This document shows positions 35,800 through 55,582 of a DNA stretch of 64,000 nt, piece by piece. The notes beneath the pieces were generated by a model. That model did not search any database and had not been told where the DNA came from. It was given only the letters and a program-made list of their open reading frames with translations. Source of the DNA: Blastocladiella emersonii ATCC 22665 (lineage: Eukaryota; Fungi; Blastocladiomycota); the NCBI GenBank assembly GCA_025594325.1, contig JANHCV010000007.1, positions 1,488,001 to 1,552,000 on the forward strand, read 5' to 3'. Position 1 is the stretch's first letter, and each line of letters begins with the position of its first letter. The position numbers were made by a program, and so were the translations under genes.

Positions 35800-37751
35800 C
35801 ACGTAATTCTCGCTTTGTATAGTTACGACGGCGCGTTTTCGAGCTTCATCGAGGTGAACTACACGGATTCGGTCGCACACCAGCGCATCCTCAAGAGCGA
35901 GACGCCGCTCCAACTCTCGCACGTGGGCCTGAAGCTCAGCGACGACCCCGCGGCCGCTGCGGCCGGCAACATGTCCGGGCCACATGGACTCGGAATGCTC
36001 TCGCCAACTACACCGTCCCGACTTGCTAAGCAGTGCTGGGCGGTCCTGAATGCGATGAAGCAGCGTTCGGGGGTTCTCAAAGGTCATATCCCTGCCCGAG
36101 ATGATATGGTTCCTCGTCCCGGCCCGACCCAACTTCGAGACAGCCAAGCTGACCATGCTCCATCCACTTGGCGCGGGCGGCCGACCGAACCCAACCCCAT
36201 CTCCCGACGCTGCGCTGTCCGCCGTGTCGCCCGTCAACGATTTCAACGCAACTTCGTTGTTCGGAAAGAAGGTCGCCAAGTTCGAGGCCGCCATTGCGCA
36301 GGCGCTCGATGCTCATGGCCATGGCGACGGCGCGAGCGCACCAGGGCCGACTCCCGCCTGCATCGAGCACAAGTCGCGTGTCCTCGCTCAAGCACTCGCC
36401 GTGCTCGCCGTCTTGGGCAAGAACACCGGGTTCCAACGGAGATAGCGAGCTGGCGAAGGTGCGCGCACTCGTCGTCGAGCTTCTGGCAGACGCGATGATG
36501 GAGATTCTCGCCCGCGACGGAGCCAAGATTCGCGGCGGCTACTGGGGCCATTCGGGTCTTGGTCCCGAGGGTAATCGGTGGGCGCCGTCGCCGCGCTTTC
36601 ATCCCGCTCATCGACCACTCACACCTTGCGAAACGCGCGGTTCCGCAGGTGTTCGCTGCGACGTGCGACGCGACGGCGCCCGTGCCCACGATCCCCACCG
36701 AAGTGCGCGCGACGCTCGATCCAGCGCTACGATCCAGCGCTACTTGAGCGGCGCGATGGTGAGGGCAGCGTGCTGCGCCGCCTCAAAATCTTCCATCCAG
36801 GCGGTCCGTACAACAGCAAATGGGAGAAGCGCGACACGCAGAACGAAACCAAGGCGATGCGCCTGATCCAGCCCGACGTGATCAACGCGCTCAAGGAAAA
36901 CGCGGATGTGCTGAAAGTCCGGGGCGGCGGCGGAGGGGTCACCCAGACCGACCGAGGAGGAGCGCGACGGCGAGACCGGGCTCAACTTTGACACGTCGGT
37001 CGGGTACATGATGCTGATCGAGTCGGTCGAGGTCCTCATCAACATGGCTCCGGGCACGGGCACGGTCGACGAGAACAAGCAGCTGTGGGCCAACCTGCGC
37101 GCGTACAGCACAAACGCGGTCGAGGGCTACTCTTCGTCGATCAAGACGATTGGCAGGCGCAACGGCCGCGGGATCCGGCTCAGCACAGCGACCGACATTG
37201 CGATCATGGTGGCAAAGCAAGATGAACTGGAGCGACAAAACCTCGCAACGGCCGAGGAGCTCAGGTACACGACGCTCGTGCAGAGCCGTCACTCCAGCTA
37301 CGCGAACCGACGTGACGACGAGCGAGCCGAGGAGCGGGCCAACAAGCTCGCGGCTGGCGATGCTGCAGCTCACGCGGCGACCGGCGGGGTCGTGGACCAT
37401 TTATCCGACTCCGTGGTTGCGCCCGCGACACCCGTGGCAGGTGACAGCGCGCGCGACGTGGCCGAGGTCGAGTACAGCAACGTGGCGTACGAGCCCTCTG
37501 CCTACGTCGACGATTTTGGCAACCTGTGCGGCCCCACGCTGACCGAGAAGGACGACAAGCTCGCGTTCCTGTGCGCCGACGCGCTGACCAAGGAGTACGA
37601 CGAGCTCGCGGCCTGCATGCATGGTGACACGTCCGACCCCGCAGCATACGATCTCAGCGCGCCGCACATGCCAATGTCGTACGGCGAGGGCGACAGCAGC
37701 AGCGAGGCGGACGCCGAGGAGTACGTATTTGCTACGTACCGCGTTTGCTGA
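35800..37751 (+). pseudogene. Frameshifted unknown gene whose 3' end is interrupted by the viral element
   Basis: Coding-like segments hop between frames, including a 13-bp tandem duplication GATCCAGCGCTAC at 36718-36743. The last ORF, 37008..37751, stops on the element's first bases (TGA). Confidence 0.4.
37744..37748. repeat. Left target-site duplication TTTGC (right copy TTTCC at 55583-55587)
   Basis: 5-bp flanks match 4/5. Removing the element plus one copy restores an open frame (RVC-YVCAG..). Confidence 0.6.
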
Positions 37752-37774
37752 GGTATCCTTATAAGGATACCTCA
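37749..37774. repeat. Perfect 26-bp terminal palindrome TGAGGTATCCTTATAAGGATACCTCA (also 55557-55582)
   Basis: The sequence equals its own reverse complement and forms the outermost bases of both TIRs. Confidence 0.97.
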
Positions 37775-38100
37775 GGATAGGATTAAATGGCTATAGAGGT
37801 AGATGTGGTTAGGTCTATCCCTGGGGACGCCCGTCAGAAACATCCCCAGGGATGCGCGCGCGCCCGCAGCCACGAAGTGGCGGAGGGTCCTCACGTGATA
37901 AGTCGACGCGTCTCCAAGTGTCTCGCGGCCCACGTGACGGTCATCTGATCCGCGACGCGTCTCGAAATGACTTTGCGATTATTCGATGAATTGAAATCCA
38001 CGACGGGCATGGGCGATATTGGCAAACGTCTATGAATCCGTCGGCGCGGTGGGGAAATGGTGAGTCGGTTGGTGAGAGTATTGGTGAGGTCGGTGAGAGT

Positions 38101-38245
38101 GTGTCCCTGTGTCCCAGTGTCCCAGCGATTTTCACTTGTAGCTCGTATTTTGAACTGAAAACAGCATACTAACTAAGTATGTTAGTTATATTTTTCAAAT
38201 TTATAAAAAAGAATATTTAGCTGGGACACTGGGACACTGGGACAC
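38101..38245. promoter_or_regulatory. Origin-like module: 3x GTGTCCCW, 96-bp AT-rich core, 3x WGGGACAC (mirror copy 55086-55230; extra copy 38408-38552)
   Basis: Inverted 8-bp iteron arrays are directly visible. Function is inferred. Confidence 0.6.
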
Positions 38246-39292
38246 AAGTAGGTTGATAGAGTAGACGGCCATTTGGTAGTGGGTTCAGTCGTCATAGTCC
38301 ATGCCATCTGAGAAGCGGGCGCGGCGGATTTCCAGGTCACTGGGCGATCCAGCTGTGGGACCGAGTGAGTCAGTCAGTGAGAGTATCGATGAGGGTCGGT
38401 GCGATCTGTGTCCCAGTGTCCCAGTGTCCCAGCACCTTTCACTTGTAGCTCGTATTTTGAACTGAAAACAACATACATACTAAGTATGTTACTTTTTTTT
38501 CTTAAATTTATAGAAAAGAATATTTAGCTGGGACACAGGGACACAGGGACACAAGTAGGTTGATAGAGTAGGCGGCGAAAGTGGAAGTGAAGTGAAGTGA
38601 AAGTCGGTCCACCAAGCCACGCGTGATCACCAGCCACCCCCATGTAATTATCGATGACCAAGCGGTTCATAATCGACCTCGCCCCACCGCTTGCCAAGCT
38701 CATTACCAAGGCCTTGATTGAGCAGGCTTGGCGTGGAGATTCACTGCTTGCGTCCCTATAGCGGGTTGAGTAACTGCCTTGTTGCTGCAACGAAAGACCC
38801 CTATAAGAACCAAGTACGGCCCGCCTCGTCCACGCTCTCTCATGGCTTTGGTCATCACTCCCTCCTCGCCCTTTGCAGATGCTTGATCATAGGTGGTGCA
38901 CCATCATGTAAAAGTTTCTGCACTGGTTTGGCCAGGTTCATTGCATGGAGTCGCGAACTATGCCTTGGATCTGGCCCTCCCTTTGTTTGGTGCTGTGTGG
39001 TTTGACGAGTTTTTTGGGACTTGTGCGTTTACGATTTGGCGTGCTGTGTGGAAAGAGATTTTGCTTGCGTATTTGTGTAATCAAACGACAATGACGCCGT
39101 CGCCGCGTTCTCTGGTTCGTTCTTGTGACTGGCCACCACAGGAATGGATTGTGGAGCGCGGCGACAGTCCAAAGGGCGGGACTGGCCACCCCGTTCTGGA
39201 TGCTGAGTCCCCATTGCTACTTTACGTCCATGTTGCGATCGCGTTTGACGAGTCACGTTTGGCAAATTTAGTGCCGCGAAACTCTAAGAATA

Positions 39293-39778
39293 ATGAGTTC
39301 GCCAGATATCGTGTTGAAGGAATTCCGCAAACGGTTTGTTGATGTTCAGAATGGGCGGATATACATTCGAATGAAGGACAACTCGCTTAAAGAGACTGGG
39401 TTGAGTAAAAATACCAAAGGGTACCTCCAGGTTTTGATCAAAGGTCGGAAGCAAAGCGTTCATCGCATTATCATGACTGTCCACCTTGGCCGCGAACTAC
39501 TTCCAGGAGAACAAGTGAATCACATTAATCACAAACGGGATGACAATCGGATTGCGAACTTGGAAATCGTCTCGGCCCAACAAAACAGTCAATGGCGAAG
39601 CACTACGACTGGAGTCACACAGCGTCGAAACGGTAAATGGCAAGCGATGATCTGGACAGATGGCCGTCAAAGACACATTGGTTCGTACAAAACCCGCGAA
39701 GAAGCCTTAGTCGCACGCCACGCCGCTGCTCGCGCCCTCAACGCTCAAGGTCACCGATTCTACATCCCGGAAGAGTAA
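39293..39778 (+). CDS. HNH endonuclease (HNH_3 type) fused to an AP2-like DNA-binding domain
   Basis: VHRIIM..VNHINHKRDDNRIANL (HNH), then GV..RNGKWQAMI..HIGSYKTREEA..R..AA (AP2-like). Confidence 0.88.
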   Translation: MSSPDIVLKEFRKRFVDVQNGRIYIRMKDNSLKETGLSKNTKGYLQVLIKGRKQSVHRIIMTVHLGRELLPGEQVNHINHKRDDNRIANLEIVSAQQNSQWRSTTTGVTQRRNGKWQAMIWTDGRQRHIGSYKTREEALVARHAAARALNAQGHRFYIPEE

Positions 39779-40013
39779 TGTCACTCGGCTTCCCTACCCG
39801 CGTCTCCTTTCCAGAAAATATACAAGTCAAACAAGGCACGTCATCCAAATGCTCTTCTACGCGATAGCCATCCACAAGTCCACTCATTGACTCTTCATAC
39901 TCATAAAGGCACGCCCAGCAAATGGGCTCTCCGCAAGATTCACAGAATGCGTGTAGATCAAATACGTCGACTTGGCATGCACAGCTGTTACAGGGCGAGT
40001 CCAGGGTCTCCAT
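39738..40013 (-). CDS. Small Cys8 zinc-finger protein (91 aa from the ATG at 40013)
   Basis: CNSC..CESCGEPICWAC..CLTC. Confidence 0.55.
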   Translation of the reverse strand: METLDSPCNSCACQVDVFDLHAFCESCGEPICWACLYEYEESMSGLVDGYRVEEHLDDVPCLTCIFSGKETRVGKPSDITLPGCRIGDLER

Positions 40014-40087
40014 ACTGTGATCACGCGCTGTGTATTTAAACCGCCAAACGCATTCAAGCAGTTCTTTCTTTACTTGTCGTTCTGTAA

Positions 40088-40600
40088 ATGGAAGATTCCA
40101 AAACAAAGTGCGCGACCTGTTCGAGCGAGCCCCCAACCGGCCGTCTCAAGCAGTGCCAAGGGTGCGGCGTGGAAGTTTGTAAGATTTGTTTGAAACGCGT
40201 TACCAAGCTCTGCCCTGTTTGTAGATCCGGCGCACAGCCCTTTGTCATTGACCTTTTCAAAGTCCTGACTAAACGCAATGAATATCTACAGCGGCAGCTC
40301 CAGCAGCCTCGCACAGAATGTCTGGGTTGTATCCACCACCACCACGCTCTGGCACGGATATCAGTAGCAAATGAAGAGGTTTTTCGTAAGACCCGCGACC
40401 AGATGAAGGCTGACTACGAGCACGCACTCGCGCAAAAGCGCCAACAATGGTTCCTGATGGGTGCAGAGTCGATTCTCAAAGACACTGATCCGGCTAAACT
40501 TGCTATTCAGGAGAAAGTCTCTGGTGGATTCGGAGACGTGTACAACAAGTACCGGACATCCCCACGGATGTGCAAAGTAAACGAGTGGAACGCACACTGA
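40088..40600 (+). CDS. C4C4 RING-like finger plus coiled-coil protein
   Basis: CATC-x11-CQGCGVEVCKIC-x7-CPVCR. GTAAATG start. Confidence 0.75.
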   Translation: MEDSKTKCATCSSEPPTGRLKQCQGCGVEVCKICLKRVTKLCPVCRSGAQPFVIDLFKVLTKRNEYLQRQLQQPRTECLGCIHHHHALARISVANEEVFRKTRDQMKADYEHALAQKRQQWFLMGAESILKDTDPAKLAIQEKVSGGFGDVYNKYRTSPRMCKVNEWNAH

Positions 40601-40624
40601 ATTCTTTCTCTCAAGACTTTGTAA

Positions 40625-40789
40625 ATGGCAGTACCAACTCGATTCCAGGCGCCATGCGACCACGATCGCATTCCAGGTTGGCTTGATCAGCACGATATCG
40701 TCCGTGCAACCATTCTCTGTCCGCGCTGCGAACGCCGAGTGACGTACAAACGCACAGACTACGATAGCGACGAATATTTTAGCGACTAA
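40625..40789 (+). CDS. 54-aa Zn-ribbon-like microprotein (not in the ORF track)
   Basis: MAVPTRFQAPCDH..LCPRCERR..SDEYFSD. GTAAATG start. Confidence 0.55.
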   Translation: MAVPTRFQAPCDHDRIPGWLDQHDIVRATILCPRCERRVTYKRTDYDSDEYFSD

Positions 40790-40828
40790 GTCTTTCAGAG
40801 GTACATGGAGGTAATTCTGAAAGGTATT

Positions 40829-41005
40829 TCATTCAAAGTACACGGTGTATTTCTCGCCGGGCTTCAGTGTGCCACGGACCGCCGTGTACTTGATCGTTCC
40901 TGGCTTTGGAGCGCTCAGCATCTCGATGGGCAAGACAGTCTCGGGGATGTACACGGTGGGATTCGGGGATGGCGTACCCTGGGAAGTAATACAACTCGTT
41001 CCCAT
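40829..41005 (-). CDS. Possible 58-aa protein downstream of the MCP
   Basis: MGTSCITSQG..YTVYFE with coding-like codon usage. An overlapping alternative frame (40833..41048) also exists. Confidence 0.3.
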   Translation of the reverse strand: MGTSCITSQGTPSPNPTVYIPETVLPIEMLSAPKPGTIKYTAVRGTLKPGEKYTVYFE

Positions 41006-41091
41006 GGTGTTCCTTGACTTTGCGGCCGAAAAGAATCCCGTAGCACATTGCGTTTGAACGAGTTGCCGCTTACCATCGCCCCGAAAAAACT

Positions 41092-42306
41092 TTAGTGGAT
41101 CACGGTTGTGCCCAAAGCCTTTGCGACCACCACGACGTCGTGCTCAACCCAAGCATCAAAGCGGATAGGCGGAGAGTCGGCGGGTAGAGTCAGAATCAGA
41201 TCAATGGGCAGCTGTGAGACCACACCGTCGCTGTTGCCACTGATAGCCGATCGGACGACGTTCAGGTTTTGGGCAATGAAGAACTTGGTGCTTTGAGGAC
41301 CATAGTAATTTGAGAACTCCACAACCCCACGGACGTTATGCGAAAACGCCTTGACGACCTCACACCACGCCTCTGAAACATCAGCCACAGGCTTTGATGG
41401 GTAATAAGTATTGCCAATCTTGAACTGGTAAGAAAGCAGACGACACGCGCGGGTGTACGTCTTGGACATTTCTGTGATTTGGTTTAGATTGACCAGACTT
41501 GACAGCTGCATAGACGCGATCACAGTCTTTTGGGAGCGGTTGCGGTTAGGGATGACGATGGTGTTTACGCCTGCATTCAGGGTTTTACCAAAGTGAGTAA
41601 AGCTCGAGAAGTGAAACTTGATTCCCTCGTTCATCCAGCGCTTTGCAAGTACAGCGTTGATCTGGGGCGACAGCTCTACCTCCTCAAACTGGAGCTCACA
41701 GTTGGTCAGTGCATACTCAAGGTTCTCTGAGGGAGCGCCGTTCTCGGTGGTGACGTGCCACTGTGCGCCAGGACGAAGGTTGATGTCAATGTCGATGAAC
41801 CCGAACATGGACGTGGGAATAAAGGTCTTCACGTCGAACAGTCCCTTGAGATGGACCATGTACTTGCGGCCGAGCGGGCGCGATGTCTTTGGCCCACAGC
41901 CCAGGTGGAAAAGATTCTTGCGCTGGGACTCGTTGCAAGTCGTATCGAGCAGGATAGCATGGAGGCGCGCGTACTCGTTCTCTTCGAATAGGACTGTGCC
42001 TTTCTCGTCAGTTGCACGGATGCTTTCGATGCAGCTGAACGCGTTCTCGTCCATGACGATCTGGTTATTGCTCGAAGTGGCATTGTGATTGAATACAAAG
42101 AACAGTGTCGTCGGATCAATCATCTTAGTCTTTACGCCAGGGATGCGGAACCGGATCTGGCGATTGGCATCCGAGAACACTCCGCCAGTGGTTGAACGAA
42201 CCGTGTTGTACACACGAGTCCCTGAAACGTGCTCAGGAACGCGGTAAAGGATTTCCTCGGGCGTGATTTCGGGCTGGGAGTCGTAGAGTTTTAGCGAATT
42301 GGACAT
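41092..42306 (-). CDS. Major capsid protein, PLV-type double jelly-roll (404 aa)
   Basis: IRFRI..IDP..FFVF, FEENEY, FIP..IDIDINL, YQFKIGNTYYPSKP, FFIAQNL, VEHDVV. Adjacent to penton and ATPase. Confidence 0.88.
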   Translation of the reverse strand: MSNSLKLYDSQPEITPEEILYRVPEHVSGTRVYNTVRSTTGGVFSDANRQIRFRIPGVKTKMIDPTTLFFVFNHNATSSNNQIVMDENAFSCIESIRATDEKGTVLFEENEYARLHAILLDTTCNESQRKNLFHLGCGPKTSRPLGRKYMVHLKGLFDVKTFIPTSMFGFIDIDINLRPGAQWHVTTENGAPSENLEYALTNCELQFEEVELSPQINAVLAKRWMNEGIKFHFSSFTHFGKTLNAGVNTIVIPNRNRSQKTVIASMQLSSLVNLNQITEMSKTYTRACRLLSYQFKIGNTYYPSKPVADVSEAWCEVVKAFSHNVRGVVEFSNYYGPQSTKFFIAQNLNVVRSAISGNSDGVVSQLPIDLILTLPADSPPIRFDAWVEHDVVVVAKALGTTVIH

Positions 42307-42337
42307 TTAATGTCGCGCAATAAAAAAAAAGTACACT

Positions 42338-43531
42338 TTATGAGAAACACAGCGTCATAAACCACTGGCAACTTGTGGTATCGAGCCGACGGCCTGTGGA
42401 CCCTTCGGAAAACTCGATCAAGAACGTGTCCAGGTCGCGCTGGTACCCGAACCAGCTCATACTGGTCGATGGACTGCGATAGGTTGTGGCATATCCTGGT
42501 GAACTGTTGATGGGAAAGGCAGCGAGAACGGGTTTGTGATTGGCGCCATGAAGACGTTTATTGGTGGTCGCACTCCCAAGTTCCGAGCTGTGAATCACAA
42601 GTGAGAACAGTCCGCCGGTCATGTCCACGCAACGGTCACCCACAATCAGTCGAGCTGGCACGTTAAACTGTTCGTGTGAGAGACCTAAAAAGTCGCTTGC
42701 GAGTTTACATGGATGGACGATGAAACACTCTGCATTTGCGCCCTTGACAAGTCGGAGTTCAGCAACGAAGCGAATGGCATTGAAACTGACCTCAAGTTTC
42801 AGATCGCCGTCGCTGTTGGGATTAAAGTACCCAGTCACGCTGGCCAGAGTGGATGCAAGTGTTGCCTGCGTATAGAACCCGCGGGGAATCGTGTACTTTG
42901 ACCGTAACCCAGTGACTTGCCCACTCTTGATTTGATCCAGCGATGTTCCAAGCGGGAACACAGTCATATCCAGGAAGTCGTTTGTTGCGTCGACGCTATA
43001 GATGTTGTTCTCTATTGTAAAATCCAAGAGTCGGACGTGCGAGAACCTTGAACCAGGTGGGAGCGGAATACGGCCGTCTGCCTGGACATCCGCGTTGGTG
43101 AAAGTGAAGACGTGCTCCTCAGTGGGATGCGATGCTTGGTGCTGTACTTCGAGTGCCCTGCTCCGAGCATCAATGGGAGCCACGTAGACCGCACTTGATA
43201 CTGTATCGACGGGAACGGCGTCAATGGAAAACGGCATGGGCGCAGTCGCTTCCAGATCACGGCGAGTCACTGTGGGTACGTTCGGAAGTTCCTTGAGCAT
43301 GCGTCGCTTAGCCTTTGCCTCAGCCGACACTGGGTTCACTGGTCGAAAGACTTTTTTCGTGCCATCCCTGGAGATACTCACAATCTTCTTGATCTTAAGG
43401 ACGCGTTTCATGGGCCTTTGCGCAATGGGGATATCTTTCTCCTTGTTTCGGATCCGGTCAGTGTCAGTCTCGGGCCGCGACCCAGTTGGTGCGCGGGACG
43501 TTGGACGCGTGCTTGGGCGTTGCCGATTCAT
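42338..43531 (-). CDS. Minor capsid (penton, single jelly-roll) protein with a basic N-terminal arm
   Basis: FTIENNIYSV..ND, IPRGFYT..LAS.L, LAAFPI..PG..TY, FLIEF..RRLD..WFMTLCF. Confidence 0.8.
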   Translation of the reverse strand: MNRQRPSTRPTSRAPTGSRPETDTDRIRNKEKDIPIAQRPMKRVLKIKKIVSISRDGTKKVFRPVNPVSAEAKAKRRMLKELPNVPTVTRRDLEATAPMPFSIDAVPVDTVSSAVYVAPIDARSRALEVQHQASHPTEEHVFTFTNADVQADGRIPLPPGSRFSHVRLLDFTIENNIYSVDATNDFLDMTVFPLGTSLDQIKSGQVTGLRSKYTIPRGFYTQATLASTLASVTGYFNPNSDGDLKLEVSFNAIRFVAELRLVKGANAECFIVHPCKLASDFLGLSHEQFNVPARLIVGDRCVDMTGGLFSLVIHSSELGSATTNKRLHGANHKPVLAAFPINSSPGYATTYRSPSTSMSWFGYQRDLDTFLIEFSEGSTGRRLDTTSCQWFMTLCFS

Positions 43532-43549
43532 TTACAGTACCCAAGGAAT

Positions 43550-44311
43550 TTAATTCACGTACTTTTCGAACCGTTTGGTGAGCAATCTCGCCTTGCTATT
43601 CTTGTAATTGACGTGCATGAACGAATAGTCCTCGGCAGTACAGTGATTATAGATCTGCAACCACCGGTCCCAAGTCTTGCCACAATGATGCTCCTCGTAA
43701 AAGTTTTTCACTTCCTTTTGATTGCCCGTTGAGAACAACAGAAAGTTGGTTGTGTTGAGACGAAGCGGCTTGGCAAGCTGGAAGTAAGATTGTGTGACGT
43801 AGACCGTGGAAATCATGTAGTGTCGCCCGTTCATGACACAATCAATGAGGACTTTGCTTTTAAGCACACCCGCTGCCGCGCAATCGTCGAGTACAAGGAG
43901 TACGGGCTGTCGATCGCGTTTGGGGATGGCTTTTTGCGACTCGATGAGTTCGTAGACCACGTTTTCAAAGGTCGCGGCATCCGTATGGACATCCGCCTCG
44001 GATGGAACGGTGGGGTCTTCAAGGTCATCGTCTGGGAACAGTCGCGCTTCGGCCTTGTCTTTGCGGCGGGGCTTTGAGAGGATTCCTGGCGCGAAGATGT
44101 GTTTCCACTTCTCGTCGCTTTCAAACGATGGACAGCACACGACAAGCCGGCTAAACTGGCCCTTGTAAAAGCGTGTGATCATGTTCAGTAGCGTGAGCGT
44201 CTTGCCACTTCCACGACATGCTACGATCGCACACGAAAAGCACACTTTGGGGATGAGCGAGTCCGGGCCCTTGGCGTCGCCCTTTTCTCGTAATGGTTTG
44301 ATTTCGAACAT
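43550..44311 (-). CDS. A32-like (FtsK/HerA) genome-packaging ATPase
   Basis: Walker A ACRGSGKT, Walker B LLVLDDC, GRHYMIS..VTQ, LRLN. Confidence 0.93.
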   Translation of the reverse strand: MFEIKPLREKGDAKGPDSLIPKVCFSCAIVACRGSGKTLTLLNMITRFYKGQFSRLVVCCPSFESDEKWKHIFAPGILSKPRRKDKAEARLFPDDDLEDPTVPSEADVHTDAATFENVVYELIESQKAIPKRDRQPVLLVLDDCAAAGVLKSKVLIDCVMNGRHYMISTVYVTQSYFQLAKPLRLNTTNFLLFSTGNQKEVKNFYEEHHCGKTWDRWLQIYNHCTAEDYSFMHVNYKNSKARLLTKRFEKYVN

Positions 44312-44448
44312 CTTTACGGTATACCATCAAAAGTATTTGCGTTTGAGCCACAGAGCACACTGGACACACTCTACGGCGAGAACGTATCCGCCAAAATACA
44401 TTAAAGCAGTTGAGAACATGACTGATTTAATGTGTGATGAGAAAATAT

Positions 44449-46498: not shown

Positions 46499-48373
46499 AT
46501 GGACTTGAACACGCGAAACATCTTTGGGTACGCACCTGGTACCGGTACTCCAACTGTGGTCGCCGATCCGGTGGCCATTGACAGCGTCTCAAACCTTGCA
46601 ACAAAGGCGTACTGTAACGCCAACTCTGGAGTGGCTGCGGGGACCAACATCGTTGTTACTGGCAAGACCGTTGCAGTGAGTGACCTACCTGGATTCTCCC
46701 AAGTCACGCTATCTGAGCCACCCACACTTCCAACGCATGCCGTGACCAAGGCCCACCTTGAATCAAAACTTTCAAACGTGATTGGCGCAGGTCCTGGTGT
46801 GAATGTCATTGGAAACGTCGTATCGGTAAAGGTGGACGACGCGACGCTTGGAGTTGGGGCACAGGGAATCTATGTCAAGTCCGGTCTTGCAGCTGGATCA
46901 GTGACGTCTGCGGCGATTCAAGATGGTTCGGTGACCACGGCAAAGCTGGTCGATGCATCTGTCACGCCTGAGAAACTCACAAGTGTGCCATGGACAAAAG
47001 TTACGGCTCCGCGGATCACAAACGCCATGCTGGCTGAACCCGTTGCCGACGCAAACATTGCCAGCGTTTCAGCGACCAAGGTCGTGGGCCAATTTGCACA
47101 GAGTCAGCTCCCAAACACGATCGACGCGGGCCGAATCGGCGGTACACTTGCCGCGGCTAATCTCCCTTTGACTATTGACGCTGGCAAACTCACTGGATTG
47201 GTTCCGGTGTCGTGTCTTCCCGCAACGACATCGACAGCTGCATCGACCATCACTGGACTCATCACCGACTCCCAAATCGCCGGAGTGTCCGCATCCAAGG
47301 TTTCGGGCGTACTTGCTGCTGCGAACATCCCCACGGTATTCTCAGGGATGATTGCCTCCCTTGAAACGACCAAGTTGAACGGGCAGATCACAAATGCCCA
47401 AATCGGTGCCGTAGATGCTGCAAAGATTACGACTGGAACCATTGACTTGGCTCGACTCCCTGATGTTTCAAACAAAGTTGGTTCTCTGTCCGGCCTTGCA
47501 CTTGTTGATGCATCTGTTTCGGATGCCAAACTTGTGAGTGTTTCTGGTGGAAAGCTCGTTGCGGGTTCAGTAGGTACATCAGCACTCGCTGACTTGGCTG
47601 TTTCGAACGCCAAACTTGCAACGGGAATCGACGGCGCCAAAGTCACGGCCGGATCTATTGGCAATGTCCAACTCGCAAGCGGTGCTGTCTCGGACATCAA
47701 GGTCGCGGACGTTTCTGCCGCAAAGCTGACAGGTACACTCGATGTTGCACGCATTGCTGACGGTTCGATTGGCAATCTCAAACTCGCAACGGGAATTGAT
47801 GGCGCCAAAGTCACGGCCGGATCTATTGGCAATGCCCAACTCGCAAGCGGTGCTGTCTCGGACATCAAGGTCGCGGACGTTTCGGCTTCCAAGCTCACTG
47901 GCACACTCGATGTTGCACGAATTGCGGACGGTTCGATTGGCAATCTCAAACTTGCAATGGGTATTGATGGCGCCAAAGTCTCGGCCGGATCCATTGGAAA
48001 TAGCCAGCTTGCAAGCGGTGCTGTCTCGGACATCAAAGTCGCGGACGTTTCCGCTACAAAGCTCACTGGAACTCTGGACGTGGCACGTATCGCGGACGGT
48101 TCTATCGGGAATCTCAAACTGGCCACAGGAATTGACGCTACGAAACTCGCAGGAACCATCGACATTGCCCGTCTTCCCGATATTTCCTCAAAAGTGACAT
48201 CCGTGAGCGCATCCGCACTAACAGGCACAGTGCCTCAATCCGCACTTGGACTTGGCGCGACGTTTGCGTTTACGAATACGACGGATAGCACATCGACTTC
48301 ATCTGGTGCGATCACGATTAACAACGGACTTGGAGTGAATAAACAACTGTCCGTGCCCAACATTCTGGTCTGA
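46499..48373 (+). CDS. Fibre-like virion protein, N-terminal part (624 aa, Gly/Ala/Ser repeats)
   Basis: LATKAYC and AVTKAHL stalk motifs, DGSVTTAKL decamer repeats, three 56-aa tandem units. Ends at a TGA that is in frame with the next ORF. Confidence 0.8.
   Translation: MDLNTRNIFGYAPGTGTPTVVADPVAIDSVSNLATKAYCNANSGVAAGTNIVVTGKTVAVSDLPGFSQVTLSEPPTLPTHAVTKAHLESKLSNVIGAGPGVNVIGNVVSVKVDDATLGVGAQGIYVKSGLAAGSVTSAAIQDGSVTTAKLVDASVTPEKLTSVPWTKVTAPRITNAMLAEPVADANIASVSATKVVGQFAQSQLPNTIDAGRIGGTLAAANLPLTIDAGKLTGLVPVSCLPATTSTAASTITGLITDSQIAGVSASKVSGVLAAANIPTVFSGMIASLETTKLNGQITNAQIGAVDAAKITTGTIDLARLPDVSNKVGSLSGLALVDASVSDAKLVSVSGGKLVAGSVGTSALADLAVSNAKLATGIDGAKVTAGSIGNVQLASGAVSDIKVADVSAAKLTGTLDVARIADGSIGNLKLATGIDGAKVTAGSIGNAQLASGAVSDIKVADVSASKLTGTLDVARIADGSIGNLKLAMGIDGAKVSAGSIGNSQLASGAVSDIKVADVSATKLTGTLDVARIADGSIGNLKLATGIDATKLAGTIDIARLPDISSKVTSVSASALTGTVPQSALGLGATFAFTNTTDSTSTSSGAITINNGLGVNKQLSVPNILV
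47612..48150 (+). repeat. Coding tandem repeat: 3 x 168 bp plus a partial unit
   Basis: Unit starts (AAA CTY GC) at 47612, 47780, 47948 and 48116. Confidence 0.9.
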
Positions 48374-48391
48374 AACTTAACGAGCGCGAAT

Positions 48392-49144
48392 ATGGTCTTT
48401 GACAGTGCGGTAAACACGCTGACGTACGTCGACTTTAAACAAGCTGGCGTCATCAAGAACAATCTCGCATGTACTGCCGCAGGGAATCTCGAACTCGCAT
48501 CCGCAACGACGGGCGGCGTATCCCTGGCAGCTGGCGGTGGGAACGTGGTCATCGGATCAGCGACCCTTGGAACAGAAAAACTTCGAGTCAACGGCACTGG
48601 TCGGTTCACTGGCCAACTCACACTCGACCTTGCTCCAGTGGCGGGCACAGATGCCGCGAATAAAGCGTACGTCGATAATCTCATGGCTACAAATCGGCGG
48701 GGACAGGTTCTCATCAACTCGGCGAGTTTGTCGTTTTTATCCGGACAATCCCAGGTCATCACGGGCGCAAACAGTCAAGGCGCGGCGATCGTAAACTCGA
48801 CAAGTCCCGGGTTCCTGGGTCTTGGAGCAACCAACGGCTGTTTCACTGTCAGCGCAACGGGATGGTACGCACTACGCAGTCAGGGCTGGTACACGCAGGG
48901 AAGTACGGTCACGGAGCACATCGCGACTTACTCGCTGTATAATGCCACCGACTTGACCGTAGCGGGTAAGGACTACATTGGACTGCTGGCACGAGCTCTC
49001 TGTAAGTTCGCGTCAGATCAGTACATGGGAGGCAGTGCTACAGTGTACCTTGAAGCCGGAAAGCAGTACGGGTTTACGTGGTCTTCCACCGTTTCCATGA
49101 CCCAATCCGTTCACGTCACTCTTGACCTCTTCTTTATGCGCTGA
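48392..49144 (+). CDS. Fibre C-terminal part with a putative C1q/TNF-like head
   Basis: GNVVIG..KLRVNG, DAANKAYVD, FTVSATGWY. Same frame as 46499..48373. Confidence 0.7.
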   Translation: MVFDSAVNTLTYVDFKQAGVIKNNLACTAAGNLELASATTGGVSLAAGGGNVVIGSATLGTEKLRVNGTGRFTGQLTLDLAPVAGTDAANKAYVDNLMATNRRGQVLINSASLSFLSGQSQVITGANSQGAAIVNSTSPGFLGLGATNGCFTVSATGWYALRSQGWYTQGSTVTEHIATYSLYNATDLTVAGKDYIGLLARALCKFASDQYMGGSATVYLEAGKQYGFTWSSTVSMTQSVHVTLDLFFMR

Positions 49145-49145
49145 T

Positions 49146-50255
49146 TCAGTGGCGCACCGTATCCCTGAATCGACCAGGTTCGCGTCGATCACGTTCCGGC
49201 GGCTTGCGTGGCTCGATTGGCTGCTTAGTGCGCGTCTGTGGTGCTGGTCGCTGTGGCGCAACGCGTCCCGGCGGCTCACGTGATACTGAAACGGGCTGGA
49301 GATCAGTTCGAGAGTAAAACCCGACGCGACCGGCGACTTTATAGCTCGGATTACTCACCCCCGAACCCTTGCGGACTTTGGTGACTTGATGCAATGTACT
49401 CGACCATAGCGGCTTTCCCTTGGACTCTAACTGGGCCTTGTACGGAATGCGCACGCGAACGAGCTGGCCGACTTTCAGCAACGCGCTCAGTGGATCACCC
49501 TCTGGTTTGCCCCGAGCGGCACGGATGGCTTTGAGCTCTGTCTTGGCGACATCCCTGGGGATGTTGTCGTAGGCGTTCGGCGCTTTACCCGTCCCACGAC
49601 TCTTGGACTTGTTGATCACGTCCTCGATTACCTTGAGGTGTTTCGGCCAGTCGTTGTTGCCTTGAATCGACATCCACGGGATGAGCATTGACTTGATTGT
49701 ACGATTCATTCGTTCTGCAACTCCCTGGCCTTGGGGCACTCCGGGTTTGCCTTTAATGTGCTTCACAGTGGTCCCGGCCACAATGGTTGCAAACTCTGTC
49801 CCGTTATCCGTCTGGATCGTAGCGGGATTCAAATTGTGTTCCTCTACGACCTTGTCCCAGATTGCCCGCACGTTGGCCGCCTCGCGTTTCTTTACGGGTC
49901 GGAGATAGACTTTACGCGTGGCAAGGTCGACAGCGACGAGAATTGCAGTGTAACCGTTAAAGTGCTTTGCTTCGCTCATGATAATTGAGTCCATCTGGAA
50001 GTTGCGGCCGGGACTAACGGACGAGATCACACGAATGTCGCGGTGCTTGTACTTGGGCTGTTTATATTGCTGCCACACTGATTGCTCTCCAAGCCATTTT
50101 TCGAGTTGGGCTCGGTAGATGTGCTGCCCTGTATTTTCCGCGGTGATGATATCAAATAATCGCCTGATGCCGACGCCAACGTGGCCCTTTTTATAGTACA
50201 GGTTGCTCAAATACTCTGATTGAGCATCCGTAAGTGGTTCTTCGTGCGGATACAT
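49146..50255 (-). CDS. Retroviral-like (rve) DDE integrase, Polinton-type
   Basis: FQMD..LVAVDLAT, IQTDNGTEF, GVAERMNRTIK, and C-terminal KVGQLVRV..W..YSRTDLQ. The catalytic triad is intact. Confidence 0.93.
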   Translation of the reverse strand: MYPHEEPLTDAQSEYLSNLYYKKGHVGVGIRRLFDIITAENTGQHIYRAQLEKWLGEQSVWQQYKQPKYKHRDIRVISSVSPGRNFQMDSIIMSEAKHFNGYTAILVAVDLATRKVYLRPVKKREAANVRAIWDKVVEEHNLNPATIQTDNGTEFATIVAGTTVKHIKGKPGVPQGQGVAERMNRTIKSMLIPWMSIQGNNDWPKHLKVIEDVINKSKSRGTGKAPNAYDNIPRDVAKTELKAIRAARGKPEGDPLSALLKVGQLVRVRIPYKAQLESKGKPLWSSTLHQVTKVRKGSGVSNPSYKVAGRVGFYSRTDLQPVSVSREPPGRVAPQRPAPQTRTKQPIEPRKPPERDRREPGRFRDTVRH

Positions 50256-50279
50256 TATATTAACAAGGAGAAATATCCA

Positions 50280-51047
50280 TCAGTTCTTGCCGACCATGTA
50301 CGTGTCGACGTGAACGCCCACGGAATGACCCATGGCATGGGCGCGAGCCTTGATCTCGTTGTACGCCTTCGTGTTCTCAGACGCGCTGATCCGGCGCAGC
50401 TTCTGGACTCCAACGTCAAGTCCAACGAGCTTGCCACTGCGGCCAACGTCTTGGCACCACTTCTTGCACAGCGCCTTGGCGTCATCAATGCTGTCGGCAA
50501 ACACGAAATCAAAGCCCTGGTCGCGGCGGTACTTGATAAACTTGGCGAGCATGTTAGCCTGGTCGTCGGCAACGCGGTGCTTGAAGTCGTATCCGTGGCC
50601 GGCCGTCTTGATCACAATGGAACCGTAAATGAGCTCCGTCTCAGGGTCGTAGTGCGGGAAGTGGTCCGTCTTATCCACAGTGAGGAATGCGAGGTCACTG
50701 CGAACCGTAGTCAGAGTCTGGAGGTAAAGCTGCAGCTGGTGGACCTTGCTGGCGAGGCTGACTTCCTTGTCCAGCGTCCAGTCAAACTTCTCGTCGATCG
50801 CCTTCAGAACCTCAGCCTGAGTGGGCAGCGTGCCGGCTTCCTCCTTGTTGCGGGCCTCGCGCTTCTGCTTACGAAGTTCCTGGGCGTGCTTCGAGTACTG
50901 ATCAGCAAGCTCATTGTCGCCGTTCCAGTTGCAGTACACGCTGAGCCACTTGGCCGTGTCCGACTGGAGCGCATCTGGCGGGTTGTTCTTTCCCTTTTTG
51001 TCGTCCCACTTGACCATGGCGGCCTTCACAGCATCCACGTTGTGCAT
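50280..51047 (-). CDS. Tyrosine recombinase (OLV11-like catalytic domain)
   Basis: R (TVRSD), K (VIKT), LRR, MGHS and Tyr nine residues after the His (HVDTY) near the C-terminus. Confidence 0.72.
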   Translation of the reverse strand: MHNVDAVKAAMVKWDDKKGKNNPPDALQSDTAKWLSVYCNWNGDNELADQYSKHAQELRKQKREARNKEEAGTLPTQAEVLKAIDEKFDWTLDKEVSLASKVHQLQLYLQTLTTVRSDLAFLTVDKTDHFPHYDPETELIYGSIVIKTAGHGYDFKHRVADDQANMLAKFIKYRRDQGFDFVFADSIDDAKALCKKWCQDVGRSGKLVGLDVGVQKLRRISASENTKAYNEIKARAHAMGHSVGVHVDTYMVGKN

Positions 51048-51056
51048 CGAGACGCC

Positions 51057-51617
51057 CTAAGTCATGAACTTGGTGAGAATGCGGTTCGCCGTCGCTTTAT
51101 CAGTATCGCTGTGCTTCCCGACTTCCTTGTTGGCCTTGATGATGTCCGCGTTCTTGAACTCCTCAATCGACTTGGCTGTGATCGTCTCGAACTTGAGCTT
51201 CTTAGCGGCGGGCTGCTGATCCTCGTTGGTGGTCGAGGACTCGGACGCGTCGGCCATCTCCACGTCCTGCGTGGCTGGGTGATCAGCGGGCTGATCCGAA
51301 TCACGTTCCATGACGTCATGCGAGCGCTTCGTAGCCTGCACGGGCACGGCCTTCTCGAGGTTGTCGAGACGGGTTTTAACACCATGGATACACTCGTGGT
51401 ACAGGTGATTGTCGCCTTCAAGGGTGTGGGCCAAGTGAGCAAACTCGCGCTCCACCTCAGCCAGGCGAGGCTCAATCTTGGACTGGGTCTCGGCCATGTG
51501 GCTGAGAATCGTCGCTTGCTTGTCCTCGATGGCTTGGAGGCGGGGCTCGAGGGCGTTCATAAACTCCTTGGTGGCTTGCGCGAGGATGTCCTTGACCAGA
51601 AGCTCGAACGACGCCAT
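51057..51617 (-). CDS. Coiled-coil ORF, probably the N-terminal part of the tyrosine recombinase gene
   Basis: Same frame as 50280..51047, separated by one TAG plus 3 codons. Confidence 0.65.
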   Translation of the reverse strand: MASFELLVKDILAQATKEFMNALEPRLQAIEDKQATILSHMAETQSKIEPRLAEVEREFAHLAHTLEGDNHLYHECIHGVKTRLDNLEKAVPVQATKRSHDVMERDSDQPADHPATQDVEMADASESSTTNEDQQPAAKKLKFETITAKSIEEFKNADIIKANKEVGKHSDTDKATANRILTKFMT

Positions 51618-51712
51618 TGTGCTTTACTACAGAGCAGGCAAAAAAGGTACGCGGGGATGTCCGCGTTTTATACGTTTGGCGTTATCGCTAAAAGTTTTCG
51701 CGCCTGTTGCTA

Positions 51713-52168
51713 ATGGACTCGCACTTGATGGGATTCATCCTGAGCCATGTCACTGACATCCCCAACACTGTATTCGATCCAGAACTCGTTCTGCAGCTTG
51801 ACAGCGAAGCCATTGCAACGATATCCCCAGGGATGGCGGGTGCCGCGTTTGAGAAGGTCCGCGCACTCGCTGCCCGCGTGGCGATCGTCGAACTCGCTTT
51901 GAATCGCAAGCTTTCCAAGTGCCCGCTCACTTCCTGGGGCGAAAACACACTCCTCGAGCTCGTGGGCAAGTTAAAGGTTCGAAAGCTGGACGTGGACATT
52001 GCAGGAACTCTTGCCAAGTTTTCCATTCCAGAGTGCGAGGCGGAAATTATCCGCGCGGAATGGGAAAAAGTAAAGCTCGATGTGATGCTCAAGGCAATTG
52101 CAAAGGCATCTGTGCGCAAACTCGAAAAGAAACAGAAGCCAGAGACGGCGGAAGACGACGCGGAATAG
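51713..52168 (+). CDS. Hypothetical helical protein
   Basis: 151-aa ORF from the ATG at 51713, divergent from 51617 and upstream of the replicase. Confidence 0.6.
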   Translation: MDSHLMGFILSHVTDIPNTVFDPELVLQLDSEAIATISPGMAGAAFEKVRALAARVAIVELALNRKLSKCPLTSWGENTLLELVGKLKVRKLDVDIAGTLAKFSIPECEAEIIRAEWEKVKLDVMLKAIAKASVRKLEKKQKPETAEDDAE

Positions 52169-52287
52169 ACGTTCCCGCGATCCAAATGACATATCGATAG
52201 CTATTTCTGAAGAGTTATCGATAAACGCGCCAGACGCATAAAAGAAGCCGGTTTTTCCTCTTATAGGACAGTAAGAACATCCCCAAA

Positions 52288-54663
52288 ATGTCTTCTGCCG
52301 CTTCCAAGATTGCCGAGACTGTCAAGGACCTCTCAAAGATTCTTGACCCGCTCTATGCTGTCCGTCTCATGGCACCAGTGAATCCCAAGGCCGTGGAAGC
52401 TCTACACAGCAAGGCGATCCAGTGTTCGTGTGCCGACCCAAAGCAACAGGCCAAGGAAACGAAAATCGTCAACTCAATCCGTCGCAAGATGAATAAGCGC
52501 GGTGAAATCGAGACCATCTACAAGTTCTCAGACACGACAAACTCTGGCCGACTTACTACCACGCCTACTACTCCTGGGCTACAAAAGATTTGCGGCGAAA
52601 CGCGTGCGTTCCTGTTCAAGGGCGTGCTCCAAGATATCGACATGCACAACTCCGCGCCAACCATCATCCACCAACTGGCTCGTCACCATGGACTCGAGTA
52701 CCCTCTTCTCAACGAGCACATTGAGAACCGAAACAGCGTACTTGATCGACTGGGCATGAACAAAACCGATTTCTTCGCTGGCTCGTTCAGCAAAAAGTGT
52801 CCGTTGGAGTTTCCCGCCGAGTACAAGGCGTTCCACGCGTTTTTGTACAACGTCGTGGTTCCCAAGTTTCAAGAGATGCACCCGGATGTGTGGGCCATGT
52901 CGTCACCAAAGCATCCCAATCGCCAGGGCTCATTCCTCTCGTTCGTCTATCAGTGTGTCGAGTGCAAGCTCCTTCTTCACGCCAAAGACTTTTGCTCTTC
53001 GCGTGATATCAAGCTCGCGGTTCTCATGTACGACGGCATGATGGTCCGTGCCTCAGATCAGATCAACGAGCAGTTTATGGCCGACCTCGGTGCGTACACG
53101 CTCGAAAAGACGGGTTTTGATATCAAGTGGGCCGAGAAACCCATTGTCGCGCCCTGTGCCATTCCAGAGCCCGAGGAAGAGGAGGAGGAGAAGACACCAA
53201 CGCAGTTGATCTCAGAGTTTATCGTGGACGAGTTCAAGACCCTGGGCTATGTCAAGGACAGCGAGTACATTTACAAGCCATCAGCAAAGAACCCGTTTTA
53301 TTTTGAGCGCCACATGACAGTGGATGAGTACGTGTCCTACATTCTCGATGACGTATTTGTCGACTATTACAACCAGGACGCAAGCAAGTACCGCCGCCAC
53401 GTAACACAGCGATTGGCGCAGTGTTCTAAGAACATCCCCCAGTACAAACAAAACCGCAGCCTGATCGCGTTCAAGAATGGGGTTCTGTTCACTGGCACGC
53501 ATGAGAACCGTAAATGGGGGCCAATTTCTCTACAGGACATCGAGGACAACTACGAGTGGTTTGTAAACCACGTTTGCAGTGGGAACCCAGTGGTGTGGAC
53601 GTACATTGACAACGAGTTCGATTTCGATTACCTGAACAAGTACTCTGAGCTCAGCCTGGGCCCTTACCAGGACGTGCTTGATCTACAGTTTGGTAGCAAC
53701 GAGCTTGCCAAGATTCAGTACGTGATGATGTACTTTGGCCGCACCATGTTCCCAGTGGGATACTTTGACAACTGGGCAATCACGCCATTTACCTATGGCG
53801 AGTCGGGCACGGGCAAGTCCCTGTCCATCAAGCTTGTTCAGGACATCCATGGGATGCACCGCTTCCAGGCCACGGCCAGTGATGAAACTGTGACCAAGTT
53901 TACGATCGCGTATACGAAGAACAAGGTCGCGTGGGAGCTCACAGATGTAAATGCTGACTTTTTCGAGAAACTTGGTTTCCAGACGGCCAAGAACCTGGTC
54001 GAGGGTAAGGGACTTTCCAGCGCGCGAAAGGGCGGGGACGAGGTCACTGATGCCTTTGAGGCGCATATGCTGCCAACGTCCAACTTTGTTCTCAAGATTA
54101 CCGAAGTTTTCAACGAAGTTTCCAAGCGTTTCATGTTTATCAACTTTACAAAGAAGCCCGAACGCGAGAACACGTTCCTCCAGGCGCAGAGCCGAGACAA
54201 GTACTTGCTGAACATTCTGCTGTTTGCCCTGGACGCGTATCACTTCACTGTGCAGCACCTTGAGGAGAACCAGAGGCTCACATTCCGCGATGACATTATG
54301 GAGCAGGTATTCAAGGATAACGCTGTCATGGCTAAACTGGCAAACGATCCAATTGAGAGCGCACTGCTTGATGATGACTGCCCGCTGACTGTGACGGCGG
54401 ATCCGGAGCAGGCGATGCTTTACACTGATTTCCTCCGCGCACTTGATCTGCACCCCAAAACCAAGTGGAATGACTCCCTGATGGAGGCGCGCGGACTGGG
54501 CAAGGCCACAATGAACCTCTGCAAGTACTGCATGGGCAAGCATGCCAAGGACTGTTGCACCCAGTACGATCGGACGGCCCGGACCAAGCGGCCAGTGGTG
54601 ACTGGTGTGGTCTACAGCTACAGACTCAATACTGCAGAGGACGACGGCAATGATTGTGAGTAG
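52288..54663 (+). CDS. TVpol (family-A-like primase-polymerase) fused to a D5-like SF3 helicase
   Basis: GRL..GLQ, motif A QDIDMHNSAP, motif C LMYDGMMV, then LIAFKNGV, Walker A GESGTGKS, WELTD, PTSN, KRF.FI.F. Confidence 0.85.
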   Translation: MSSAASKIAETVKDLSKILDPLYAVRLMAPVNPKAVEALHSKAIQCSCADPKQQAKETKIVNSIRRKMNKRGEIETIYKFSDTTNSGRLTTTPTTPGLQKICGETRAFLFKGVLQDIDMHNSAPTIIHQLARHHGLEYPLLNEHIENRNSVLDRLGMNKTDFFAGSFSKKCPLEFPAEYKAFHAFLYNVVVPKFQEMHPDVWAMSSPKHPNRQGSFLSFVYQCVECKLLLHAKDFCSSRDIKLAVLMYDGMMVRASDQINEQFMADLGAYTLEKTGFDIKWAEKPIVAPCAIPEPEEEEEEKTPTQLISEFIVDEFKTLGYVKDSEYIYKPSAKNPFYFERHMTVDEYVSYILDDVFVDYYNQDASKYRRHVTQRLAQCSKNIPQYKQNRSLIAFKNGVLFTGTHENRKWGPISLQDIEDNYEWFVNHVCSGNPVVWTYIDNEFDFDYLNKYSELSLGPYQDVLDLQFGSNELAKIQYVMMYFGRTMFPVGYFDNWAITPFTYGESGTGKSLSIKLVQDIHGMHRFQATASDETVTKFTIAYTKNKVAWELTDVNADFFEKLGFQTAKNLVEGKGLSSARKGGDEVTDAFEAHMLPTSNFVLKITEVFNEVSKRFMFINFTKKPERENTFLQAQSRDKYLLNILLFALDAYHFTVQHLEENQRLTFRDDIMEQVFKDNAVMAKLANDPIESALLDDDCPLTVTADPEQAMLYTDFLRALDLHPKTKWNDSLMEARGLGKATMNLCKYCMGKHAKDCCTQYDRTARTKRPVVTGVVYSYRLNTAEDDGNDCE

Positions 54664-54761
54664 ATTGTGAGTGTGTGTGAGTGTGTGTGAGTGTGGAGGT
54701 CGTACTCACAAAATGCACTACTTTTACGTTACCCTGAGTGTTTTTACTTTGTTTTTTGTCT

Positions 54762-54904
54762 TGTGAGTATGTGAGTATGAGATTTAGAGGTATTCAGTGA
54801 TATATATTTGGAAGAAAAAAGTAACATACATATGTCAGTGACAAACACTCTCCGAATTATGGGCGGGGTGGAAAAGTTCCGATTCCTGTACTCACAAACT
54901 CACA
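54762..54904. promoter_or_regulatory. Second origin-like module with a different iteron (TGTGAGTA x2 .. WACTCACA x2)
   Basis: 8-bp periodic inverted repeats around a 111-bp core. The core shares AAGAAAAAAGTAACATAC with the inverted left-end module. Confidence 0.45.
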
Positions 54905-54971
54905 CCCGGGGTAAGCCATTAGCTTCCTTTGTGGAGGCCCTAAAAACTGCGTCATACTCACAACTCCCTGC

Positions 54972-55582
54972 CCCACAGCTGGATCGCCCAGTGACTGGAA
55001 ATCCGCCGCGCCCGCTTCTCAGATGGCATGGACTATGACGACTGAAACCCACTACCAAATGGCCGTCTACTCTATCAACCTACTTGTGTCCCAGTGTCCC
55101 AGTGTCCCAGCTAAATATTCTTTTTTATAAATTTGAAAAATATAACTAACATACTTAGTTAGTATGCTGTTTTCAGTTCAAAATACGAGCTACAAGTGAA
55201 AATCGCTGGGACACTGGGACACAGGGACACACTCTCACCGACCTCACCAATACTCTCACCAACCGACTCACCATTTCCCCACCGCGCCGACGGATTCATA
55301 GACGTTTGCCAATATCGCCCATGCCCGTCGTGGATTTCAATTCATCGAATAATCGCAAAGTCATTTCGAGACGCGTCGCGGATCAGATGACCGTCACGTG
55401 GGCCGCGAGACACTTGGAGACGCGTCGACTTATCACGTGAGGACCCTCCGCCACTTCGTGGCTGCGGGCGCGCGCGCATCCCTGGGGATGTTTCTGACGG
55501 GCGTCCCCAGGGATAGACCTAACCACATCTACCTCTATAGCCATTTAATCCTATCCTGAGGTATCCTTATAAGGATACCTCA
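54972..55582 (-). repeat. Right terminal inverted repeat (611 bp)
   Basis: Reverse complement of 37749-38359. Confidence 0.97.

Follow-up and report, generated by a model that had tools for sequence, protein, structure and literature searches.

The 64,000-nucleotide stretch of Blastocladiella emersonii ATCC 22665 analysed here (contig JANHCV010000007.1, positions 1,488,001 to 1,552,000 of the forward strand; hereafter the window) carries an endogenous Polinton-like virus (PLV) of 17,834 bp at positions 37749-55582. Our analysis indicated that this element is one of about five copies, which were probably inserted by a retroviral-type (rve) integrase from a linear form predicted to have hairpin ends, and whose capsid genes would be switched on by a giant virus. 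A preceding reading of the letters alone (the sequence-only reading) had proposed a 17.8-kb element bounded by terminal inverted repeats (TIRs), and its coordinates proved exact. The left TIR (37749-38285) is 537 bp long and 100% complementary to the right TIR (55046-55582), with 0 mismatches in 537, and the termini read TG...CA. Open reading frames (ORFs) occupy ~80% of the element, and the largest unannotated internal gap is 302 bp at most. Its G+C content is 52%, whereas that of the host DNA ranges from about 56 to 76% (per kb).

Both TIRs end in the same perfect palindrome, TGAGGTATCCTTATAAGGATACCTCA, which is 26 bp long and has 13-bp arms, no loop and TG...CA at its borders (37749-37774 on the left and 55557-55582 on the right). 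The arms of the other perfect palindromes in the 64 kb were 7 bp at most. In contigs from four public sequencing runs (X1-X4), this terminus was joined to five different flanks (the two in the window and three others), indicating that the palindrome is part of the element and not the result of a one-off repair. The palindrome at the left end is likely to be an unfolded hairpin end. A second form of the terminus, which differs by 3 letters within the first 58 TIR bases (37749-37806), accounted for ~40% of the ends in the contigs; the depths of the two forms were 948:598, 245:169 and 36:31, that is, near six ends to four in two of the three runs.

The rve integrase gene (49146-50255, minus strand) matched the rve profile with an E-value of 6.5e-9, and its product contains the residues D89, D150 and E181. 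Integrases of the retroviral type insert at unrelated targets and leave TG...CA ends with a duplication of 5 bp. The window copy lies between TTTGC on the left (37744-37748, plus strand) and TTTCC on the right (55583-55587), an imperfect target-site duplication (TSD) in which 4/5 bases match and of which both sides were found in contigs. Two other flanks, if paired, carry GTACG on both sides, which is a perfect 5-bp duplication. Both window junctions were mismatch-free in contigs that extended only 30 letters into the TIR, one below our bridge rule. TSDs of 5-6 bp have been described for mavirus and Polintons (PMC8547959). Because the ends are TG...CA, the flanks are unrelated and the duplication is 5 bp, the chromosomal insertions were very probably made by the rve integrase and not by the tyrosine recombinase (YR) that the element also encodes.

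Copies were counted from protein records, together with contig depth. Counting copies had been proposed in the sequence-only reading, and five annotated copies were found: YR and helicase gene models are adjacent in each of five B. emersonii contigs. The depth of the public-run contigs was ~five times higher over the body of the element than at the junctions (212 vs 37-51 in X1; 656-775 vs 138-149 in X2); this depth is not a copy number and was used only as agreeing with the five records. The genome thus holds about five copies, and the element is recent and multi-copy. The earlier concern about a contaminant or a lone misassembly could be dismissed in view of the five annotated copies and the five flanks, and a contaminant was ruled out by the host genes in the window together with the different flanks at the terminus.

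The capsid genes form a block on the minus strand. A structural model of the major capsid protein (MCP; 41092-42306) had been suggested as a check, and the AF2 model (pLDDT 90.6, pTM 0.89; 82-sequence alignment) folded as a double jelly-roll. Its best structural match by Foldseek was the PBCV-1 capsid (E 2.9e-16, TM 0.69), and the double jelly-rolls of an iridovirus, EhV and vaccinia D13 were also matched. Named virophage capsids appeared at ranks 22 and 34 of this structure search, behind giant-virus MCPs, and a PDB sequence search with the MCP gave no match. The A32 packaging ATPase (43550-44311) was identified by Pox_A32 (E 4.8e-9), with Walker A and B motifs present. Between these two genes lies that of a likely penton or minor capsid protein (42338-43531), whose N-terminus carries a basic extension. 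The penton assignment is based on position and on a language-model look-alike search (Atlas; score 0.97), in which the look-alikes were DUF5901 and Sputnik V18/19 (26% of that cluster). Four ORFs of 101, 176, 83 and 259 aa without a credible family (44449-46383) have the same orientation as the capsid genes. On the plus strand, a 624-aa fibre-like protein (46499-48373) with 56-aa repeats (168-nt period) matched the tail fibre family phrog_892 (E 6e-7). It is followed by a 250-aa ORF without a family (48392-49144), which is in frame with it, begins 18 nt past its stop and has no TAAATG start. The latter is possibly the head of the fibre, and the TGA between them would be a stop of this copy or else a readthrough site (46499-49144). 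The full morphogenesis module of the sequence-only reading was borne out for the MCP fold, the ATPase and the fibre, with the penton as a likely further part. Judging from the intact capsid ORFs, the element may form virions.

The hexamer TAAATG was found at 6/16 ORF starts, compared with 15/519 of all ATGs in the element (Fisher p 1.3e-6). These starts belong to the MCP, penton, fibre, 176-aa, 259-aa and RING-like ORFs, so that five of the eight virion-block genes have it and none of the four HNH, rve, YR and replicase genes does. Over the whole element TAAATG occurs 15 times, as against 4 for AAAATG, 8 for CAAATG and 6 for GAAATG. The ATPase gene and the 83-aa ORF start with TAAAGATG, and T-runs lie upstream of several ORFs. 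The core of the vaccinia late promoter is TAAAT followed by G (PMC11980589), and helper-virus promoters mark virophage-like elements (10.1101/2022.07.28.501842, 10.1101/2025.10.09.676808). Giant viruses are common in Allomyces (30/58 isolates were MCP-positive), and mycodnaviruses are among those it carries (PMC13533422). The chances are about even that the virion genes would use TAAATG as a late promoter read by the machinery of a giant virus, most plausibly a mycodnavirus, and that the element would lead a virophage-like life.

The replicase gene (52288-54663, plus strand) encodes a fusion protein in which a putative primase-polymerase of PolA-like (TVpol) type precedes an SF3 helicase; it is the sole product >700 aa in the element and has no PolB match. 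The TVpol-SF3 replicase of the sequence-only reading was confirmed by profiles in its helicase half (SF3/D5-type; DUF5906 E 2.3e-5, phrog_1829 E 4.9e-13), whereas its polymerase half was recognised by two motifs, DIDMHN and YDGMM, which we take to be those of TVpol; a Walker A motif is also present. The polymerase-like N-terminus is common to all B. emersonii copies (92-100%), but from about residue 300 the proteins fall into two helicase types that are ~40% identical in the core (52288-54663 and P0164-P0172; rows with <90 residues in a region were excluded). Type A, present in the window and two other copies, shares 61% identity with A. arbusculus P0165. The two copies with type B are 81-84% identical to proteins of A. 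arbusculus, A. javanicus and A. macrogynus (82% to AMAG_09864). Both types are present in A. arbusculus, and the tree separates them at 100/100. Contig depth over 53166-55046 was 148 and 447, corresponding to about three of the five copies. These results suggested a possible link between end type and helicase type, and the second form of the terminus may accompany helicase type B. PLVs are known to exchange primase-helicases at the sub-gene level (PMC11296320).

In and beside the TIRs are three copies of an origin-like module, in which inverted 8-9-nt repeats flank an A+T-rich core. Module 1 (38100-38246) has inverted TGTCCCAG-type repeats, 27-nt arms and a 93-nt core; module 2 (38407-38553) is a 91% copy of it outside the TIR, and the third (55085-55231) lies in the right TIR. 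We infer that the modules may be origins for the SF3 helicase. A degenerate fourth copy is present at 54791-54832, beside a (GA/GT)-type short tandem tract (54660-54702) after the replicase stop.

The YR gene (50280-51617, minus strand) is split in the window by a TAG at 51057-51059. It is a single ORF in 4/5 annotated copies, and the fifth gene model bypasses the TAG as an intron; identity between copies is 97-98%. The C-terminal ORF of 255 aa (50280-51047) contains R116, K147, K216, R219, H241 and Y250 and aligns at 100% identity with the C-terminal region of B. emersonii H9P43_006443. By eye, without a scored alignment, it resembles the RED1_13 motifs PLRND, MLRKS and MGHT..Y (supplement of PMC4642659). 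Based on these motifs, the Atlas look-alikes and the by-eye comparison, the protein is best called an OLV11-like YR, and a PDB sequence search with it gave no match. Both integration enzymes claimed in the sequence-only reading were recognised, the rve by profile and DDE residues and the YR, as the weaker call, by motifs, look-alikes and the by-eye likeness. Its description of the element as complete held for the capsid, ATPase, rve and replicase ORFs, which are uninterrupted, but not for the YR with its in-frame TAG or for the fibre ORFs split by TGA.

From these observations we propose the following cycle. The free linear genome would have a closed hairpin at its end, with the tip at the centre of the 26-bp palindrome; this part of the proposal we favour slightly. 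If the returning strand were nicked 13 nt beyond the tip, after the CA, the hairpin would unfold into a CA-3' end, and integration followed by gap filling would produce the palindrome-then-host junction that was observed. The same product would arise if an end-to-end junction, once replicated, were cut with a stagger. The TVpol-SF3 protein would start replication at the A+T-rich inverted-repeat modules, an assignment that we hold with a little more confidence than doubt. The virion genes would be fired via TAAATG when a giant virus infects the same cell. The most likely task of the YR is to act at TIR junctions while the element is free or replicating, or else to join the element to helper DNA; in the window copy, where it is interrupted, it would need to be supplied from another copy. 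In a more elaborate version, which we regard as quite unlikely, the element would be a linear, hairpin-ended blastoclad virus that parasitises giant viruses of fungi much as a virophage does, in which the YR makes the hairpins, the rve opens them at CA for insertion into chromosomes, a resident mycodnavirus reads the poxvirus-type TAAATG late promoters of the capsid genes, and two exchangeable helicase-plus-end modules are kept across genera.

Several points weigh against this proposal. All the contigs are from one sample, possibly the source of the assembly itself. One of the 5 bases of the TSD in the window is mismatched, against 0 of 537 in the TIRs, and the pairing of the two GTACG flanks is assumed, not bridged by a contig. 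No end-to-end TIR joint, hairpin, fold-back or other free form was present in the four contig sets, though contigs drop rare forms. The TVpol domain had no profile or PDB match, and the YR model, built from six near-identical sequences, reached a pLDDT of 41.5. The TAAATG enrichment was noticed after looking at the starts, and A-rich start contexts are common in fungi. The accessible text on Allomyces mycodnaviruses (PMC13533422) names neither Blastocladiella nor promoters. One PLV, TsV, is described as an autonomous nuclear lytic virus (10.64898/2026.06.19.733378).

The last of these observations also favours a somewhat unlikely alternative, in which the element is an autonomous nuclear or transposon-like PLV that uses host polymerase II, TAAATG is no more than a strong context for the start of translation, and the palindrome arose as ends were repaired; accidental annealing has been offered as an origin for such palindromes (10.64898/2026.07.28.741278). 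However, TAAATG exceeds the other three NAAATG hexamers and stands at virion and not at replication genes, and the same terminus is found beside five different flanks. If the element were a relic in decay, or a chimera assembled from several copies, and now inactive, this would account for the stop in the YR and possibly that in the fibre, for the imperfect TSD, and for the fact that the element is not spanned by any contig among those listed. We consider this very doubtful, since the TIRs are identical, ~80% of the element is open, the MCP, ATPase, rve and replicase genes are uninterrupted, the YR is nearly identical between copies, and both junctions were recovered letter for letter in contigs.

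Two further alternatives concern the YR. It may be a hairpin telomere resolvase that cuts the replicated junction at the palindrome centre, with the rve alone integrating, which would explain why both enzymes are kept. Palindromic ends and rve-type junctions leave the YR without a role in host integration. Its Lys at position 216, the first His position (KLRR), is resolvase-like and was found in 6/6 scored phage resolvases, and one of its Atlas neighbours at 0.96 is a ResT-TelK_cat cluster (45% of members). Moreover, few mutations interconvert the two enzyme types (PMC12270096), and in an entomopoxvirus a YR has been suggested to resolve dimers (PMC11296320). On the other hand, another neighbour, a Phage_integrase cluster (16%), has an equal score and shares more features with the YR (173 vs 145), and the by-eye likeness is to OLV11-type YRs. 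With profiles built from 8 phage resolvases and 8 integrases (200 shuffles each), the YR scored -0.8 bits against the resolvases (49/200 shuffles as high) and 3.4 bits against the integrases (9/200). Its Arg-His spacing of 22 falls within the 20-24 of 6/8 integrases and differs from the 33 of the resolvases (6/6 scored, of 8), and tblastn against 50,697 phage records gave no match at E 10. Membership of the telomere-resolvase family was rejected on the family profile and the catalytic spacing, and we regard a resolvase function as unlikely. The usual proposal for PLVs, a YR acting with circular intermediates (PMC4642659), would make the 26-bp palindrome, which is a direct and an inverted repeat at once, an attachment core duplicated at both ends. 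This is most improbable here: the flanks are unrelated, short duplications lie outside the palindrome, the ends are TG...CA, the rve is intact, and it is implausible that five or more unrelated loci of the host should each hold a 26-bp attachment site.

The HNH endonuclease (39293-39778, plus strand; HNH_3 E 1.2e-11, phrog_99 E 2e-32) had been read as HNH-AP2; the HNH part stood, but AP2 had no Pfam match, and the C-terminal part is AP2-like by eye only. The zinc fingers of the same reading correspond to two matches below the cut-off, FYVE (E 0.036) in a small Cys-rich protein of 91 aa (39738-40013, minus strand) and Prok-RING_2 (E 0.027) in a RING-like Cys-rich protein of 170 aa with a TAAATG start (40088-40600, plus strand). 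A 54-aa ORF with CxxC (40625-40789, plus strand; TAAATG start) had no family match, and a 151-aa ORF (51713-52168, plus strand) has no assigned function. The sequence ACATCCCC occurs in 11 copies in the element (37817-37853, 46433, 49551, 51823 and others) and 0 in 46 kb of host DNA; its palindromic form, ATCCCnnGGGAT, is found in the TIRs, between genes, and also within the rve gene and the 151-aa ORF. The sequence may serve as a binding site, or it may be a small module that derives from the TIR.

The host DNA of the window contains ORFs for AdoHcyase, GST, Kelch, LRR and DDE_Tnp_4 transposase (5 ORFs or ORF pairs with matches among 20 scanned). Left of the element, a 247-aa host ORF (37008-37751) ends in a TGA formed by the first three element bases, and may owe its truncation to the insertion. 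The contigs also hold a paralogue of 37472-37726; it was considered as an empty site and set aside, because it diverges at 37726 and shows none. A joint of 37462 to 55781 was also discarded, with only 22 letters on one side, within a repeat. To the right lies a Harbinger/PIF-like region (58290-63290), in which two 66-bp direct repeats enclose DDE_Tnp_4 transposase ORFs (60855-62454) together with an ORF of 337 aa that runs the opposite way. An 18-bp piece of the 66-bp repeat is found in inverted orientation close to 55781, within a repeat of very high depth just right of the virus.

Relatives were found in three Allomyces species. The MCP is 54-55% identical to proteins of A. macrogynus and A. 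javanicus (54% to A. macrogynus AMAG_06710), and a relative in A. arbusculus was found via the replicase. A two-sequence MCP profile matched 359 proteins at E<=0.001 among 1.84 billion; its ten top matches were one hypothetical protein, one B. emersonii fragment and eight without a name, and 149 further MCP relatives were mostly without a name. No related loci were found in viral contigs (MCP, YR and ATPase queries) or metagenome contigs (MCP query). An integrated PLV with MCP, ATPase and helicase in A. macrogynus, and a Spizellomyces PLV, were reported in 2021 (PMC7805220). The former is from the same fungal order, and the MCP and type-B helicase comparisons with AMAG_06710 and AMAG_09864 given above refer to this species. 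The report gives it two sentences in its accessible text, without a genome map, ends, integrases or promoters. AMAG_06710 may be the MCP gene of that report, whose readable supplement has no Allomyces entry. The idea of an undescribed lineage of early-diverging fungi holds as to an endogenous PLV of such a fungus, but 'undescribed' is an overstatement, given the A. macrogynus genes already reported. Chytrid PLV ATPases are also on record (10.64898/2026.06.19.733378), a 2023 protist survey excluded fungi (PMC10120064), and the accessible main text of 10.1101/2025.04.19.649669 does not name blastoclads. Our literature searches, beyond which supplements may list the lineage, found no paper on a Blastocladiella Polinton or endogenous viral capsid, none on Polinton-like elements with a protelomerase, and neither this combination in a PLV nor a description of the Blastocladiella family.

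The composition called unusual in the sequence-only reading was upheld: the element combines rve, YR and TVpol-like/SF3, and no match to pPolB or a maturation protease was obtained among 17 element ORFs (Pfam, PHROGs), five of which are without assignment. Like classic Polintons/Mavericks (Polintoviricetes), it has TIRs, rve, a double jelly-roll MCP, a likely penton, A32 and a TSD in the 5-6-bp range (5 bp, 4/5 here and 5/5 for the inferred pair), but it has YR and a TVpol-like/SF3 replicase in place of the undetected pPolB and protease. A genome size within 15-30 kb with TIRs, the double jelly-roll MCP, the A32 ATPase and the usual lack of a protease agree with PLVs, and the virophage-type MCP with protease is not found. 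The element can thus be classed broadly as a PLV; it is not a Polinton, and its capsid sets it apart from virophages. Gezel-14T/PgVV-type PLVs are alike in their ~20 kb, TIRs, MCP, A32, fibre-like protein and absence of a protease, and their minor capsid protein, TVpol-S3H and OLV11-like YR have probable counterparts in our element (10.1101/2022.07.28.501842, PMC4642659). Gezel is giant-virus dependent, with an early AAAATTGA promoter and no rve listed in the accessible text, whereas our element adds rve, terminal palindromes, TAAATG starts and a fungal host; this likeness is one of gene set. The order TIR, primase-helicase, YR, called an end module (PMC11296320), is the same in our element.

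Mid-GC EMALE virophages of Cafeteria also combine rve and YR, without pPolB, with a long primase/helicase that has a possible polymerase domain and TSDs of mostly 3-5 bp (PMC8547959), but they have a virophage-type capsid and a protease, whereas our element has a giant-virus-like MCP fold and no protease was found. Halocafeteria seosinensis virophages and PLV subtype 4 share palindromes at the TIR tips beside TSDs, non-pPolB replicases, rve and a hairpin model (10.64898/2026.07.28.741278). There, according to the accessible text, rve is paired with YR in virophages "but not PLVs", the role suggested for the hairpin is to prime replication once the element has been excised, and the palindrome of subtype 5 is 52 bp; ours is 26 bp and is read as an opened hairpin end. 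Each single ingredient therefore has precedent, rve with YR in virophages and terminal palindromes in Halocafeteria. New are the perfect 26-bp palindromic ends, the five flanks, the TAAATG starts, the helicase dimorphism and the in-frame YR stop in this copy; all of these except the flanks also go beyond the sequence-only reading in kind.

Giant viruses have only recently been shown to be persistent in zoosporic fungi, Allomyces above all (PMC13533422). A near-intact, multi-copy PLV family in Blastocladiella and three Allomyces species makes it possible to ask, with organisms that grow in culture, whether virophage-like elements exist in fungi. It also sharpens two questions about PLVs, namely what the free genome ends are and why some elements keep both rve and YR. 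If the helper-dependence is true, the element would be a candidate helper-dependent virus of fungi, testable in culture.

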